Of a DNA stretch of 64,000 nt, positions 16,668 through 21,875 are shown in pieces (the first letter of the stretch is position 1; every line of letters starts with the position of its first letter). The notes under the pieces were generated by a model. That model worked only from the letters and a program-made list of their open reading frames with translations, searched no databases and had not been told where the DNA came from. Source of the stretch: a virus (taxonomy: Duplodnaviria > Caudoviricetes); the IMG/VR virus record IMGVR_UViG_3300028533_000484, positions 32,001-96,000 of that record; one strand, given 5' to 3'. The translations under genes were made by a program, and so were the position numbers.

Positions 16668-17453
16668 TTGATTTTAGAATTGAAGAAATTCACTGAAGAA
16701 CAATATATCAAGGCTAAAGAGGAATTTTACAAAAAGCCTGGTATTCCAGATATAGAATTGGAATTGGAAGGATATCAAAAAGAATTGTTACTTAAAAACA
16801 ATTTTAATATCCTTCCTCAGTTTCAAAAAACATTAGCTGTTTATTCGAAATCCCTTTTATTGCAAAGACTTTCTGTACTAGGTGACTATATTGAACCTGA
16901 AAAAGTTGAAGAGTTGTCCGATTTAGCTGCAGAAAACTTCATTAAAAGATACTTTAGAAACGATGATCCAATCGTAGGTGCCTCTTTCGCAGGAATTTTA
17001 CAATTCAAAGTAAAAGAAGTTCTGTCAATCTACTTTAAGAGTTCTGCTATTGAATCTAATGTATCTCTTGACACTGAGGTAGGAAAAGCTACTGGCAATA
17101 GTTCACTAACAGTTGAACAAATTCTTGCATACAAAGGTTATGAGGATAGAACTACAGATGATCTAGATCCTCAAATAAGTTATGAGGATTCTGTAGAAGA
17201 TATACTTGCAAAGATTCAGGACGAATGCGAATTGTTAAAAAAGATTAATAAGAATAAAAACTTGAATAAGTACTTTTTACAATACCTTGTCTATTTATGT
17301 ATACTTCAATCTTCAAGATTGGAAAAGAGATTAAATACTATCTCAGGTCAGGCTGTTAAGCTCATCTTTGATGACGAGGGAAGTATTAATTCCATTCTTC
17401 CAATCCTTGAAAGTTCGCTATTAGATATTTCCGAAAGAATTATCGGTTATTAA
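16668..17453 (+). CDS. Hypothetical helical protein, possibly sigma-factor-like
   Basis: All-helical with a VSLD motif mid-protein; weak. Confidence 0.3.
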   Translation: MILELKKFTEEQYIKAKEEFYKKPGIPDIELELEGYQKELLLKNNFNILPQFQKTLAVYSKSLLLQRLSVLGDYIEPEKVEELSDLAAENFIKRYFRNDDPIVGASFAGILQFKVKEVLSIYFKSSAIESNVSLDTEVGKATGNSSLTVEQILAYKGYEDRTTDDLDPQISYEDSVEDILAKIQDECELLKKINKNKNLNKYFLQYLVYLCILQSSRLEKRLNTISGQAVKLIFDDEGSINSILPILESSLLDISERIIGY

Positions 17454-18931
17454 AACTGAAAGTTTAATTTATCTAACTTTTCTTGAATGCTTGCTTTCTT
17501 CTCGTATTTGGTATTTATCCATTTCGTAGAAGGAGCAAATTCAAGATCGTATTTAAGCAACAAAGCTAAACATTCTGCACAAGTATCAGAAGCATCTTTC
17601 GCATTTACTCCTAATTGAGAAGTTTCCCAACTTGTATCCTCAGACTCATTACAAACCTTTCCCTTAAAGTGATCTACCTTTATTGTACCGGATTCACGTT
17701 TCGTCCAGTGAATAGATCTTAGATTGTTCTTTAAGAAAACATTTTTACCTGCAAAGAATCTTTCATGAGTAATGTAGTCAATTAAAGCTTGATATGGTTC
17801 ATTCTTTTTATCTGCAGAAATATAATCGATTGGAATTCCACGTCTTTTTAAAGCCTGTCTAGTTGCATCAGATTGGAAATTATCGAAATTGACCATACCT
17901 AAATTGATGTTTCCTAAATCAATTAAGTCTAGAATAAAACATTTAATAGCTTCTAGATTTATTTTTGTACCTCCTGTAGGCACAAGCATAATAGTAAAAT
18001 CAACTACCATTACATTCATTGTATCAGACGGTCCATCTTTTGTATTTACATACTCCCAGTGAGCCATTGTAATAGCAGTAGCGTCTCCTGATGTAGATTG
18101 ATCGACTGCTAAGACACGTTTTGCACCAGGCTCTCGATAGAACATGTAATCTGTGTTGAATTTAACAAAGAACTGATCCTTAATTTTATCCCAAATAAGT
18201 CCTTCAGGTTTCAAATCTGCATCGGCAACAATTGCAGTATATATGTTTCTAAGATCATTGTCAAATATATTTTCAATTGTACTACCAGCTTGGAAAATTC
18301 TATCAGATGAACCTGCAGGAATACCAGCCCAGTCTCGTAAAAATTCAACAGGGTTTTGAATTGCAAGAGACATTAAGTTGATTTGTCCAGTAGGTTTAAT
18401 ATCGCGTCTAGGACACCAAACAAGATCTAAAGGATCGTACAAAGCGGCTTCTGCATCTGTTTTACATGCTTTTGGAGGTTCTGATTTACCACCTTTGTAA
18501 CACTGGAATCCAACATCCCAGTTGTGCACTTCTCTACCTTTTGCATCAAAAAACTCTGGAAACTCTTTTTGAAAATAGTCCCATTTAGCACCTAGTACAC
18601 AGTACCATTTTGGATCGTATATAGCCTCTTCCCAAATCCATTTATCAATTGGAGACTCCATCGAAAAAGGAGAAGAGTCTATCATATATCTTCCTAAGTA
18701 GTGGTTGTTCATACGAGAATCAACACGTTGACAAGCCTTATCAAAAAACGATTTAATCTGCTCTTTTGTCCATCCGTTCTGCTCCCACCAAGCCAGCTCG
18801 GTAAAGACTGCTGCAATAATTGTATTATGAGTTAATATTTTTTCGTCAGTAACATACATTTCATCTTTAGCAGACACTTTTATGCACTGACATTCTTCTT
18901 TTCCTACATATTTTATAGACTTAATTTTCAT
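17450..18931 (-). CDS. terL: Terminase large subunit C-terminal part, preceded by a 36-aa split-intein C fragment
   Basis: MKIKSIKYVGKEECQCIKV...ILTHN|T; then Walker-B-like AAVFTE, nuclease motifs LAVDQSTSGDAT, FDNFQS and KDASD. Confidence 0.9.
   Translation of the reverse strand: MKIKSIKYVGKEECQCIKVSAKDEMYVTDEKILTHNTIIAAVFTELAWWEQNGWTKEQIKSFFDKACQRVDSRMNNHYLGRYMIDSSPFSMESPIDKWIWEEAIYDPKWYCVLGAKWDYFQKEFPEFFDAKGREVHNWDVGFQCYKGGKSEPPKACKTDAEAALYDPLDLVWCPRRDIKPTGQINLMSLAIQNPVEFLRDWAGIPAGSSDRIFQAGSTIENIFDNDLRNIYTAIVADADLKPEGLIWDKIKDQFFVKFNTDYMFYREPGAKRVLAVDQSTSGDATAITMAHWEYVNTKDGPSDTMNVMVVDFTIMLVPTGGTKINLEAIKCFILDLIDLGNINLGMVNFDNFQSDATRQALKRRGIPIDYISADKKNEPYQALIDYITHERFFAGKNVFLKNNLRSIHWTKRESGTIKVDHFKGKVCNESEDTSWETSQLGVNAKDASDTCAECLALLLKYDLEFAPSTKWINTKYEKKASIQEKLDKLNFQF
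18824..18931 (-). mobile_element. Split intein C fragment (IntC, 36 aa)
   Basis: Block F (CQCIKV) and block G (LTHN) followed by Thr+1. Confidence 0.9.
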
Positions 18932-18985
18932 TTATATAAATTAGTGAATAACTCTGTTTCGTTCCGTTAAACTATAATATATATT

Positions 18986-20689
18986 GTGAATACCAAAATA
19001 TATTACAAAGCCTTAAATATAGAAGATCCTTGCAATATGACTACTGAAGAGATAAAGAGATGGGAAAAACTAATATCTCTATCACCGACTGCAAGAGGTT
19101 ATGTAGTAAAGGCCTCTGAGCAAGGTGTTGATATACTTTTTTGCTATTCCAAAGAAAATCTGTATCAAAGGTACAACAGTCATTTTGACATTCTGACAAT
19201 CTCTGAATTTTTAGGATTACATCCAAAAAAAGTTATTTTAAAAGGACACGAAGCAAACTACTATACAGAAAAAGATGTTGCAATTTTAGATGATTTCATG
19301 AAAAAGGATAAAAAGGAAATTGCCAAAATTGTAGCAGAACAAAATAGTATCAAAAAGTATGGTGTAAAAAGTTACAAACAAACTGAAAATTATAGAAGAA
19401 CTGTTTCCTCAAATGTTAAGAAAACTTGGCAAAAAACAGGTTATAGAGATAATATATCTTCAAAGGTAAAAGAAACGTACAGAAACAAATCCGAAAAGGA
19501 AAAGCTTCTGAAAAAAGATCACATAAAATTAGCTTTAAAAAGTGCCAATCAACAAAAATTGAAAAATATTGAGGAATTCAAAAACAATTTTAAACAAAAG
19601 TACGGTGAAGAACTGTTGAATCTAACAGATTTTTCCAATTATCTGGATATATGTTGGTCGAGCCTAGATGTTTTTGAAAAAAGATTAGGAATAAAGCTTG
19701 AAGTTTTTCAAAAGTACAATGCAAAGTTCATAAAAAGATCTGATGCAGAAAAAGCAAAAAAACTTCTAACATCTATTTCAAGTAACAGATCTCTTTTGGA
19801 GAATCAGGTTATGACCTTTGTAAAATCTATTTACACAAGTAATGTAAGATGTAATGATCGAAAACTGCTAGGTAACGGAAAAGAATTAGATGTCTTCATT
19901 CCTGAGAAAAATCTAGCTATAGAATTCGATGGAATTTACTGGCATTCCGATGCTCCAGGAACAGCAATTTGTGAAGTTCCTAGTAAAGAGTCCCGGGATT
20001 TTGCAGCTTATAGAGGTCTAGAAAAAACAAAAGCTTGTGAAGAGAAAGGTATAAGACTTATACACATTTTTGAGGATGATTGGATTCTAAAAAATGATAT
20101 CGTAAAGTCAATCATCAGAGCGGCTCTTGGACAATTTGAAAATAGAGTGTTTGCAAGAAAGTGTACAATTCAGGAACTTAGTGTTCCTGAATATAGATCT
20201 TTTTTGGAAAATAATCATCTGCAAGGTTACAGTTATGCAGATGTTAGACTCGGTCTTTTCTACAACAATGAGTTACAGGAATGTATCGGCGTGCATACAA
20301 AAGGTACTCACGATAATAAACTGCCAGAACTTGTAAGACTGTGCACAAAGCAAAATACTCAAGTTTTAGGAGGTTTTGGAAAACTCTTAAAAGCTTGCAA
20401 TTTGCCAAAAATCTGTTCATACATTGATAGAGGTACATTTGCAGGTAATGGATATAAAGCAGTCGGCTTCACTGTCGAAAGTATAAACAATCCTACATAT
20501 TTTTACGTCAAAGGTTTTAAAAGGTTTCCAAGATACAACTTTACAAGAAAGTGCATAGAGAGACTTTTTAATAAAGGCCAGTTGAAATACTGGAATCCAG
20601 AAGAAACCGAGGAAATAAATATGTACAAAAACGGTTATTCAAGAATTTGGAACTGTGGCACAGTTAAAGTTGTATGGTCTAAAGTTTGA
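18986..20689 (+). CDS. Free-standing putative homing endonuclease (Vsr/DUF559-like nuclease plus Hef-like C-terminal domain)
   Basis: KKYGV repeat-type N-terminus; ELDVFIPEKNLAIEFDGIYWH and GIRLIHIFEDDW; C-terminal FLENNHLQG..ELVRLC..GGFGKLL..SYID..GNGY..RIWNCG; lies antisense between the terL halves. Confidence 0.8.
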   Translation: MNTKIYYKALNIEDPCNMTTEEIKRWEKLISLSPTARGYVVKASEQGVDILFCYSKENLYQRYNSHFDILTISEFLGLHPKKVILKGHEANYYTEKDVAILDDFMKKDKKEIAKIVAEQNSIKKYGVKSYKQTENYRRTVSSNVKKTWQKTGYRDNISSKVKETYRNKSEKEKLLKKDHIKLALKSANQQKLKNIEEFKNNFKQKYGEELLNLTDFSNYLDICWSSLDVFEKRLGIKLEVFQKYNAKFIKRSDAEKAKKLLTSISSNRSLLENQVMTFVKSIYTSNVRCNDRKLLGNGKELDVFIPEKNLAIEFDGIYWHSDAPGTAICEVPSKESRDFAAYRGLEKTKACEEKGIRLIHIFEDDWILKNDIVKSIIRAALGQFENRVFARKCTIQELSVPEYRSFLENNHLQGYSYADVRLGLFYNNELQECIGVHTKGTHDNKLPELVRLCTKQNTQVLGGFGKLLKACNLPKICSYIDRGTFAGNGYKAVGFTVESINNPTYFYVKGFKRFPRYNFTRKCIERLFNKGQLKYWNPEETEEINMYKNGYSRIWNCGTVKVVWSKV

Positions 20690-21017
20690 CCTCTGGTGCA
20701 TTAGACTCATCATAAATCTCTATTTCTTTTCCTTCCTTTAACCAATCTATCAACTGCAAAGTATTTACAACCTGCCAGTTCCATTCTCCTTTTTCATTTT
20801 TATCTATTGCAACTTTCCACAAATGGTTGTCAGACGATCTTACTTTTCTACCATCATCTAGCTCAATTTCAAAAATATCTCTTTTACCTTGAGGGAATAT
20901 ACCTATTACTTCTGTTTCACCTTCTGTAGGGGATTTTATTTTATCTCCCAATTGAACATCTTTCATTTCGTAATAGGTACCATCTGCTTTCATTATTTTA
21001 GAATACATTGGTTGAGC
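20679..21017 (-). mobile_element. Split intein N fragment (IntN, 112 aa, Ala1)
   Basis: AQPMYSKIMKADG...VQLGDKI...IFPQGKRDIFEIELDDGRKVRSSDNHLW. Confidence 0.9.
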
Positions 21018-21788
21018 ATTTCCCAACAAGTGTCCTTCAGTAGACATCATCTTTAACTGAAGATTGTTTCTAAACAACATTCTAGCAGAACCGCGACCTG
21101 CTGTTGAATAAATAATTTTACTACAAGAAGGATCTAGTTTATCTGCGTTAACAACATCGTCACGACGACCAACTTTTTCAAATATTGGACTTTGCTCAAT
21201 AAACTGCTCAAAAGGAGTACCTAACAAGTCCCATACTTTACCTAAACTATAACTGGCTAAAGCTACACAATAACTTGTCATCGCAGAATGCCCCAATAGC
21301 TTAAAAGGTTCTCTCATCAAACAAAAGTGAACCATATCATAGGATACGCACAAGTTGGAAAGCAAGGATTTTCCCCAGCCGATACTGGTTGAAAGAGCTA
21401 AACCTCTTTTAGGATTCAATGGATTTGGATCCATGAATTCGCAAAATGCTTTTTTAACATTAGGCCATAAACCTTCAGCTTGTGCACCTATCCATTCTGG
21501 AGTTAAATATTCTTCGGGAGTTGGAGGTTTTCTTTTATAAGATAATCTCCATCCTTCATTTGCAATTAAATCCTTATAATCGTTGTTTAAATCCGCAGTA
21601 GCTAACCAGTTTAATGCAGCTCTAATATTTCCAATACCAACCGACTCTATTTCAGGTCTTTCTAAAGCTTTTGGATCACCAGCTAAAGCATCAATAAGAA
21701 TATCTGCTAAATTGTCGTCAAATGTTTGGAAATGCATATTCTTATCATTTAACTTTTTTGCTTCTGCTAATCTCAGTGTGTTACTCAT
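20679..21788 (-). CDS. terL: Terminase large subunit N-terminal (ATPase) part, fused to a split-intein N fragment
   Basis: Walker A STSIGWGKS; LLGN|AQPMYSKI intein block A; block B SSDNHLW. Confidence 0.9.
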   Translation of the reverse strand: MSNTLRLAEAKKLNDKNMHFQTFDDNLADILIDALAGDPKALERPEIESVGIGNIRAALNWLATADLNNDYKDLIANEGWRLSYKRKPPTPEEYLTPEWIGAQAEGLWPNVKKAFCEFMDPNPLNPKRGLALSTSIGWGKSLLSNLCVSYDMVHFCLMREPFKLLGHSAMTSYCVALASYSLGKVWDLLGTPFEQFIEQSPIFEKVGRRDDVVNADKLDPSCSKIIYSTAGRGSARMLFRNNLQLKMMSTEGHLLGNAQPMYSKIMKADGTYYEMKDVQLGDKIKSPTEGETEVIGIFPQGKRDIFEIELDDGRKVRSSDNHLWKVAIDKNEKGEWNWQVVNTLQLIDWLKEGKEIEIYDESNAPEVKL

Positions 21789-21875
21789 TATAAAATATTT
21801 AGTTATGTTTTAAGGGTTTGCACAAAGGAATAGCCCTTCAGCTATTGAAGGGCTTTAATTTGAAAAAAGATGTGT

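Follow-up and report, generated by a model that had tools for sequence, protein, structure and literature searches.

A large terminase gene fractured by a candidate naturally split class 3 intein with the canonical Trp-Cys-Thr triplet

Described split and class 3 inteins, and the terL locus

The first naturally split class 3 intein to be reported, AceL NrdHF (Hoffmann et al. 2020, PMC7891396), splices in trans, and its authors found no split form among the 1701 class 3 inteins in nr; our literature searches found no natural split class 3 intein later than AceL NrdHF. Here we describe a window of 64,000 nucleotides, bases 32001-96000 of the 140,446-bp phage contig IMGVR_UViG_3300028533_000484 (G+C about 33%), in which the large terminase gene, terL, lies in two minus-strand genes with an endonuclease gene on the plus strand between them. 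The first gene (terL-N) ends in an N-terminal intein half (IntN) and the second (terL-C) begins with a C-terminal half (IntC). From sequence comparison, we put at roughly 80% the probability that these halves form a functional, naturally split intein that works by class 3 chemistry.

An earlier, sequence-only reading of this locus knew natural split inteins of class 1 and proposed that the window intein may be a rare type, which implied priority for it. That priority does not stand, since AceL NrdHF was published earlier and also carries Ala1 in a fractured phage gene; the window intein is therefore the second described type, not the first. The same reading stressed that the initiating nucleophile sits on the small fragment. 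The Cys at position F4 does lie on IntC, but the point is not new, having been made for AceL NrdHF (PMC7891396) and for an artificially split DnaB intein (PMC10559147). AceL NrdHF and the window intein share Ala1, an initiating block F Cys on the small C-terminal piece, the canonical split site, a host phage gene whose fractured halves flank a free-standing endonuclease, and the chemistry of a +1 hydroxyl or thiol nucleophile. They differ in host gene (nrdHF against terL), in endonuclease (GIY-YIG against probably Vsr-like) and in the size of the pieces (98 + 48 against 112 + 36 aa), and our PDB searches detected no sequence match between them. Moreover, AceL NrdHF has a Met-Cys-Thr (M-C-T) triplet and lacks the histidines of blocks F and G, whereas the window intein has the canonical Trp-Cys-Thr (W-C-T) triplet and the block G His.

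Among other split inteins, AceL-TerL and GOS-TerL fracture phage large terminase genes that encode T4-like terminases, but these are atypically split class 1 inteins (Cys1 or Ser1) with a very short IntN; the window intein has the canonical split site, class 3 residues and a host gene whose terminase lineage is very divergent and unrelated to theirs. Dassa et al. 2009 (PMC2677866) described phage genes, one of them for a terminase, that are fractured by split inteins and accompanied by Vsr-like endonucleases; the sequence-only reading had likewise noted that fractured phage genes with split inteins around a free-standing endonuclease are known. With those class 1 cases (gp41-1, NrdJ-1, IMPDH-1 and a terminase) the window shares its genomic layout, probably the Vsr-like endonuclease family, and the phage origin. 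In addition, gp41-1 is the solved sequence closest to IntN, and the ..ILTHN end is common to both inteins; however, gp41-1 and its kin carry Cys1 and an Asp at F4, in contrast to the Ala1 and Cys F4 found here. Contiguous class 3 inteins are common in terminases (bioRxiv 10.1101/2025.01.02.630785), and hundreds of contiguous class 3 relatives in the databases are homologous to the window intein. Those of Mycobacterium DnaB1 (6bs8, 6rix, 6riy) and of phage TerL, DnaB and Cas4 share with it homology, fold, A1, H-x-W, Cys F4, THN and +1 Thr, but each of them is made as one polypeptide, and most contain a LAGLIDADG endonuclease, whereas the window has two genes and a free-standing antisense endonuclease. 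The novelty here lies in the canonical W-C-T triplet, in the terminase as host, and in about 26 split relatives that form a clade, occupy several terL sites and include three-piece terminases. The split class 3 family that contains the window intein is large and apparently undescribed.

Insertion site, fold and catalytic residues

Uninterrupted homologues, which we retrieved from viral and metagenome collections, show that the insertion is precise. L001:5278-7398 (706 aa), L003:209-2320 (703 aa) and P0145-P0148 all read ...MSTEG[HA]LLGN-TI[IV]... where the exteins of the window abut, so that excising 112 + 36 residues and joining Asn257 to the Thr recreates exactly the junction of a known protein. 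The uninterrupted P0145 (714 aa) shares 91% identity with the N-extein and 90% with the C-extein. The translation of terL-C begins MKIKSIKYVGKEECQCIKVSAKDEMYVTDEKILTHN and continues with TIIAAVFTE, and the predicted junction peptide of the spliced terminase is GHLLGNTIIAAVF. The sequence-only reading had quoted coordinates and residues that all agree with the open reading frame (ORF) list and translations, and had asked for a comparison with uninterrupted terL in relatives; its predicted product, LLGN-TIIAAVFTE, is the exact junction found in these homologues, where the two exteins meet at the intein-free sequence.

That the host gene is a large terminase is supported by tblastn and by the modelled fold of an uninterrupted homologue. 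Its lineage is very divergent, as Pfam gave no terminase match for the two terL pieces or for the uninterrupted homologues; megablast against GenBank phages gave no match, and PHROGs gave a weak terminase match. The terL-C piece gave tblastn matches to terminases of Gordonia and Rhodococcus phages, in their nuclease half, at 25-27% identity and with E values as low as 6e-10. P0145 was modelled with AlphaFold2 (mean predicted local distance difference test, pLDDT, 70) and the model compared with the PDB using Foldseek; the best 33 matches were all large terminases, with alignments of about 600 columns; they include HK97 6z6d (E 3.9e-10), D6E, Sf6, T4 gp17, the G20c nuclease, T7 and herpesvirus. 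These matches and the Walker motifs agree with the make-up of a TerL, in which an ATPase of the additional strand, conserved glutamate (ASCE) type, bearing Walker A and B, precedes a nuclease domain of RNase H-like fold. In the model, GWGKS (137-141) is the Walker A loop, and Thr258, the +1 residue, opens the strand 258-265 (TIIAAVFT) that leads to Glu266, the Walker B acid. The identity of both exteins to P0145 thus backs the earlier description of a fractured terL, and the model likewise places the insertion at the start of the strand into Walker B.

The fold of the intein can be followed in a relative that is not split at this position. L009:3280-3699 is a contiguous 140-aa mini-intein at the terL site of the window, and IntN + IntC align to it end to end, with the break between them in the loop where endonuclease domains normally sit; this alignment agrees with the earlier call of a split intein at the canonical endonuclease site. 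The model of the L009 mini-intein (pLDDT 90.9) matched solved inteins with E down to 2.5e-9, including the class 3 DnaB 6bs8 and 6riy. HINT blocks A, B, F and G, and the C-terminal Asn followed by Thr, can be read directly in the window halves. IntN and IntC each occur exactly once in the 140-kb genome; their net charges are -7 (acidic) and +1, respectively.

The residues of the intein point to class 3. The signature as published (PMC7891396) is present in full in the window: Ala1, Trp B12, Cys F4 and Thr G5. We searched IntN against 1.84 billion representative proteins, obtaining 3242 matches at E <= 1e-3, and took the motif residues from the best 150 of these, which gave 133 N-domains aligned from position 1 or 2 and 97 contiguous relatives. 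Position 1 of the N-domains is Ala in 99 cases, Pro in 12, Ser in 11 and Cys in 3; the block B His (B10) occurs in 133/133 and the block B Trp (B12) in 129/133. Similarly, every one of the 97 contiguous relatives has the block F Cys (F4) and the block G Thr-His-Asn, and their +1 residue is Thr (85) or Ser (12). The family profile matches 6bs8 at E 1e-4, and in its alignment H-L-W falls on the H-Q-W of two solved class 3 inteins, the DnaB1 inteins from M. smegmatis and M. chimaera. Both the homology to a canonical class 3 family and the match of the block B Trp to the class 3 Trp of these two inteins are in line with the residues assigned in the sequence-only reading.

Within the PDB, phmmer found IntN closest to the gp41-1 split intein (E 6e-7 for the wild type), the top entry being 6riz, an engineered gp41-1 that carries C1A, F65W and D107C (PMC7664689); the F4 Cys of the window corresponds by eye to D107 (F4) of gp41-1 in the 6riz sequence (PMC7664689). 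The same search with the 36-aa IntC gave no PDB match because the query is too short. The best PDB match of IntN had suggested a gp41-1-type class 1 intein that switched class alone, an idea that we rejected, as the database-wide nearest relatives are ordinary class 3 inteins.

It is unlikely, in our view, that the halves splice in trans by a route other than that of class 3, either through direct attack by the +1 Thr (class 2-like) or through another initiating residue, the F4 Cys then being structural or regulatory. Ala1 occurs in class 2 inteins too, the Ser1 of some members, such as L007, could serve as a class 1 nucleophile, and the second Cys of close relatives (C-x-C) could hint at a redox role. 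However, in Mja KlbA, the class 2 intein that has been characterised, the attacking +1 residue is Cys, whereas the +1 residue here is Thr, or Ser in some relatives; class 2 would combine Ala1 and direct attack by a +1 Cys with the absence of W-C-T, and W-C-T is present. Moreover, there is essentially no variation at Cys F4, Trp B12 and Thr G5 in a homologous family that includes solved and tested class 3 inteins.

The second Cys, at F2, is invariant in the close family and present in 31 of the 97 contiguous class 3 relatives; divergent IntC members read Q-Q-C or Q-K-C, keeping the F4 Cys and not that at F2. Such a C-x-C pair on one strand could form a disulfide that gates splicing by redox state; such gating has reportedly been seen in the M. 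smegmatis DnaB1 class 3 intein.

Selection, predicted splicing and competing explanations

The arrangement recurs in >60 clusters of N-pieces and in 27 C-piece sequences, and so is not due to chance. Its homologues retain the stop after IntN and the start at IntC, and 22 near full-length terL-C homologues share IntC. We collected 62 IntN sequences from the terL matches, covering several terL insertion sites with identity falling to 27%: the block B His and Trp are invariant in all 62, and position 1 is Ala in 47. On the other side of the split, Cys F4, THN and the +1 Thr/Ser are invariant in 27/27 IntC sequences. Rates of nonsynonymous (dN) and synonymous (dS) substitution were computed against the closest relative, L011. 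IntN gave a dN of 0.015 and a dS of 0.66 (dN/dS about 0.02), IntC a dN of 0 and a dS of 1.38 (dN/dS 0), and the exteins a dN of 0.06-0.07 and a dS of 0.9-1.0 (dN/dS 0.06-0.08). Purifying selection thus constrains the intein halves more strictly than the exteins, which, judged on these rates, is unlike the behaviour of an element decaying in a dead gene.

It is very improbable, then, that terL is simply broken, in a defective phage or through an assembly artefact, or that its halves are joined at the RNA level. Nothing specific speaks for either, and a scan of the locus for promoters and terminators gave sites at no more than chance level. The arrangement recurs in dozens of independent metagenome contigs, and both ORFs are intact and under purifying selection. 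As for RNA-level joining, an Rfam scan of the region found no RNA family, intron or other, and the intervening gene is on the opposite strand, which together make it very unlikely.

A further possibility, slightly less likely than a different splicing route, is that the halves no longer splice and that the terminase pieces are held as a non-covalent heterodimer. In its favour, the halves of split inteins are tight binders, the break falls between structural elements, immediately before a beta-strand, and the block F His appears to be replaced. Against this, His B10, Trp B12, Cys F4, Thr-His-Asn and the +1 Thr/Ser do not vary although identity over the remainder of the intein drops to about 27%, and dN/dS is lower in the intein than in the exteins. 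In addition, the ATPase core would probably be perturbed if 148 aa of intein stayed in place at the Walker B strand.

By analogy with the established class 3 pathway, the predicted route to an intact terminase would be as follows. The two terL pieces would be translated separately, and the 112-aa IntN and 36-aa IntC would associate into a single HINT fold. As position 1 is Ala, Cys16 of IntC (F4) would attack the Asn257-Ala258 peptide bond, assisted by the block B His and Trp and the block G Thr, to give a branched thioester. The N-extein would then be transferred to the +1 Thr, Asn36 would cyclise and release the intein, and an O-to-N acyl shift would yield an intact 714-aa terminase with the junction ...LLGN-TIIAAVFTE..., so that the strand with the Walker B glutamate is restored. 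With the nucleophile on the 36-aa piece, chemistry at the N-terminal junction would have to wait until the halves associate. The endonuclease, in turn, probably cuts intein-free terL alleles and thereby spreads the whole cassette.

Several points weigh against splicing by class 3 chemistry as proposed here. When gp41-1 was grafted with Ala1 + W-C-T, it gave cleavage and no productive splicing (PMC7664689), so the triplet alone is no proof of activity; in contrast to that graft, the natural family of the window keeps these residues under strong selection. Position 1 is Ser in 15 of the 62 IntN sequences, at several insertion sites, and also in L007, which shares the site of the window; thus, position 1 is not uniformly non-nucleophilic. 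The His that is usual later in block F seems, by eye, to have been replaced (..KDEMY..). Finally, the fold was modelled on a homologue (L009, 45-57% identical) and not on the window's own halves, and the confidence of the terminase model is moderate only (pLDDT 70).

Split inteins are standard protein-joining tools, and almost all of them need a Cys or Ser at intein position 1, while with many of them a cysteine remains at the junction. By contrast, a natural split class 3 intein would have its only catalytic cysteine within the 36-aa piece and would require just a Thr or Ser after the junction. AceL NrdHF, the sole characterised example, is atypical, with its M-C-T triplet and missing histidines; the window offers a canonical W-C-T version and an entry to a large family with potential as tools, in which dozens of natural variants at differing junction sequences are available. 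Three-piece terminases imply naturally orthogonal intein pairs and, should the sizeable multi-site clade proposed below be real, it would provide a natural collection of orthogonal protein ligases that work without a junction cysteine, as well as a natural series showing which changes beyond W-C-T let a gp41-1-like scaffold run class 3 chemistry. For phage biology, an essential packaging motor would be obtainable only through a predicted post-translational ligation.

Endonuclease, other insertion sites and neighbouring features

The flagged stretch holds three ORFs, terL-N (-), the endonuclease (+) and terL-C (-), that is, two gene pieces with a free-standing endonuclease gene between them (Table 1).

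Table 1. Positions of the terL pieces, intein halves and endonuclease gene in the 64,000-nucleotide window
Feature	Position	Strand	Description	Basis
terL-N gene	20679..21788	-	369 aa; N-extein + IntN; stop codon directly at the end of IntN	ORF list; homologues in >60 clusters
N-extein	21018..21788	-	terL-N aa 1-257; N-terminal part of the terminase ATPase; Walker A GWGKS; ends LLGN	
IntN	20682..21017	-	terL-N aa 258-369; 112 aa; begins AQPMYSKI	
IntN Ala1	21015-21017	-	position 1 of the intein	
IntN block B, S-S-D-N-H-L-W	His 20823-20825; Trp 20817-20819	-		
Convergent overlap	20679..20689	.	11 nt; 3' ends of the endonuclease gene and terL-N	
Endonuclease gene	18986..20689	+	567 aa; intact, free-standing, antisense to terL	
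Candidate Vsr-like core	19883-19960	+	ELDVFIPEKNLAIEFDGIYWH; in the 567-aa endonuclease gene	
Divergent spacer	18932..18985	.	54 bp; between the starts of terL-C and the endonuclease gene	
terL-C gene	17450..18931	-	493 aa; IntC + C-extein	ORF list; tblastn
IntC	18824..18931	-	terL-C aa 1-36; MKIKSIKYVGKEECQCIKV...ILTHN	
IntC block F, C-Q-C-I-K-V	Cys F4 18884-18886; second Cys (F2) 18890-18892	-		
IntC block G, Thr-His-Asn	18824-18832	-	Thr G5 18830-18832; Asn 18824-18826	
+1 Thr	18821-18823	-	first residue of the C-extein	
C-extein	17453..18823	-	457 aa; +1 Thr and Walker B strand TIIAAVFT-E, then the remaining ATPase and the nuclease domain	

The 567-aa ORF matches PHROG 3339, 'homing endonuclease', at E 1.5e-88 and contains ELDVF..IEFDGIYWH; its Pfam Vsr match (residues 253-321, E 0.086) is below threshold. 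It shares 37% identity (E 3e-50) with the L006 endonuclease, which likewise lies between the intein halves and itself matches Vsr at E 6e-5. These similarities fit the Vsr-like homing endonucleases of fractured genes (PMC2677866). Taken as a whole, the evidence supports terL of this 140-kb phage as a fractured gene, broken up by an intein with a homing endonuclease that is now a separate gene, antisense between the two halves. The endonuclease gene is on the sense strand in L006, L007 and L010, is broken into two ORFs (376 + 159 aa) in L011 (L011:6100-7799), and survives in L004 as a C-terminal remnant in a 349-bp spacer (L004:3717-4065). The split intein halves are intact in L011 and L004 despite the damaged endonuclease gene, and the two look like stages of endonuclease decay following fixation.

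The window intein is one of many. In the best 150 representatives of the IntN search, 29 resemble C-terminal IntN pieces without IntC. A quick tree search on 96 alignment columns placed 26 split and 2 contiguous members, the window included, in one clade with a Shimodaira-Hasegawa-like approximate likelihood ratio test (SH-aLRT) value of 96. The upstream junctions in the split clade vary (LLGN, TSTPT, KFFGQ, GWGK, DIIGS, WSNGG), and in relatives of the window phage terL is additionally split at the P-loop or about 95 residues upstream, which gives three-piece terminases. We are somewhat inclined to believe, with the odds a little better than even, that natural split class 3 inteins are not rare but form a sizeable clade at 5-6 terL sites or more in one group of large gut/rumen phages, some of whose terminases would be three-piece through two split inteins that do not cross-react.

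Several members of this group have features of their own. In L010:5801-11493 (also P0051, P0027 and P0122), terL is in three pieces on one strand, in the order 294-aa N-piece, 410-aa endonuclease, 238-aa middle piece, 420-aa endonuclease and 491-aa C-piece. At its start the middle piece carries the IntC that belongs to another split intein (Ser1, H-W-W, Cys F4, ..SDN, then Cys), and at its end the AQP... IntN that is also found in the window; with two split inteins in one terL, both must act side by side without cross-reaction. An additional split, directly after the Walker A lysine (GWGK), occurs in very close relatives of the window phage, namely in P0042, P0071 and P0100 (N-pieces of about 202-208 aa) and in P0017, P0019 and P0022 (middle pieces of about 407 aa), and the N-terminus of P0042 is 91% identical to that of the window. 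The IntN at this site is about 56 aa long, starts with Ala or Phe and holds block A only, while the IntC is about 150 aa long, with block B H-L-S/T (no Trp), Cys F4 and THN followed by Ser. Judged from these motifs, the GWGK-site intein is class 3-like with an atypical split site.

The divergent terL of L009:2527-6752 (P0066) has a second, split intein of class 3 type 19 residues downstream of its contiguous mini-intein (ALALDT..., C-N-A-N-H-L-W; IntC ..QKCITV..WTHN, then Ser), with a DUF723 endonuclease gene antisense between the halves. In the more distant terL of L006:2258-6796, an intein of the window's family is inserted about 27 residues upstream of the window's site (..TSTPT, then AQPLDSK..; IntC ..QQCITV..VVTHN, then Ser). 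The intein has thus moved between nearby sites of the same gene.

Turning to the surroundings of the genes, the 54-bp spacer between terL-C and the endonuclease gene must carry the start signals of both. No recognisable Shine-Dalgarno sequence was found before the ATGs of the two terL pieces (18932-18990 and 21789-21850), both stretches being A+T-rich, which is in keeping with a host whose translation does not depend on Shine-Dalgarno pairing, for example one of the Bacteroidota. At the other end of the locus, a conserved 261-aa gene (window 16668-17453, +) is convergent with terL and slightly overlaps its 3' end, and its counterpart in intein-free relatives (L001:7395-8180, -) is similarly placed with respect to terL.

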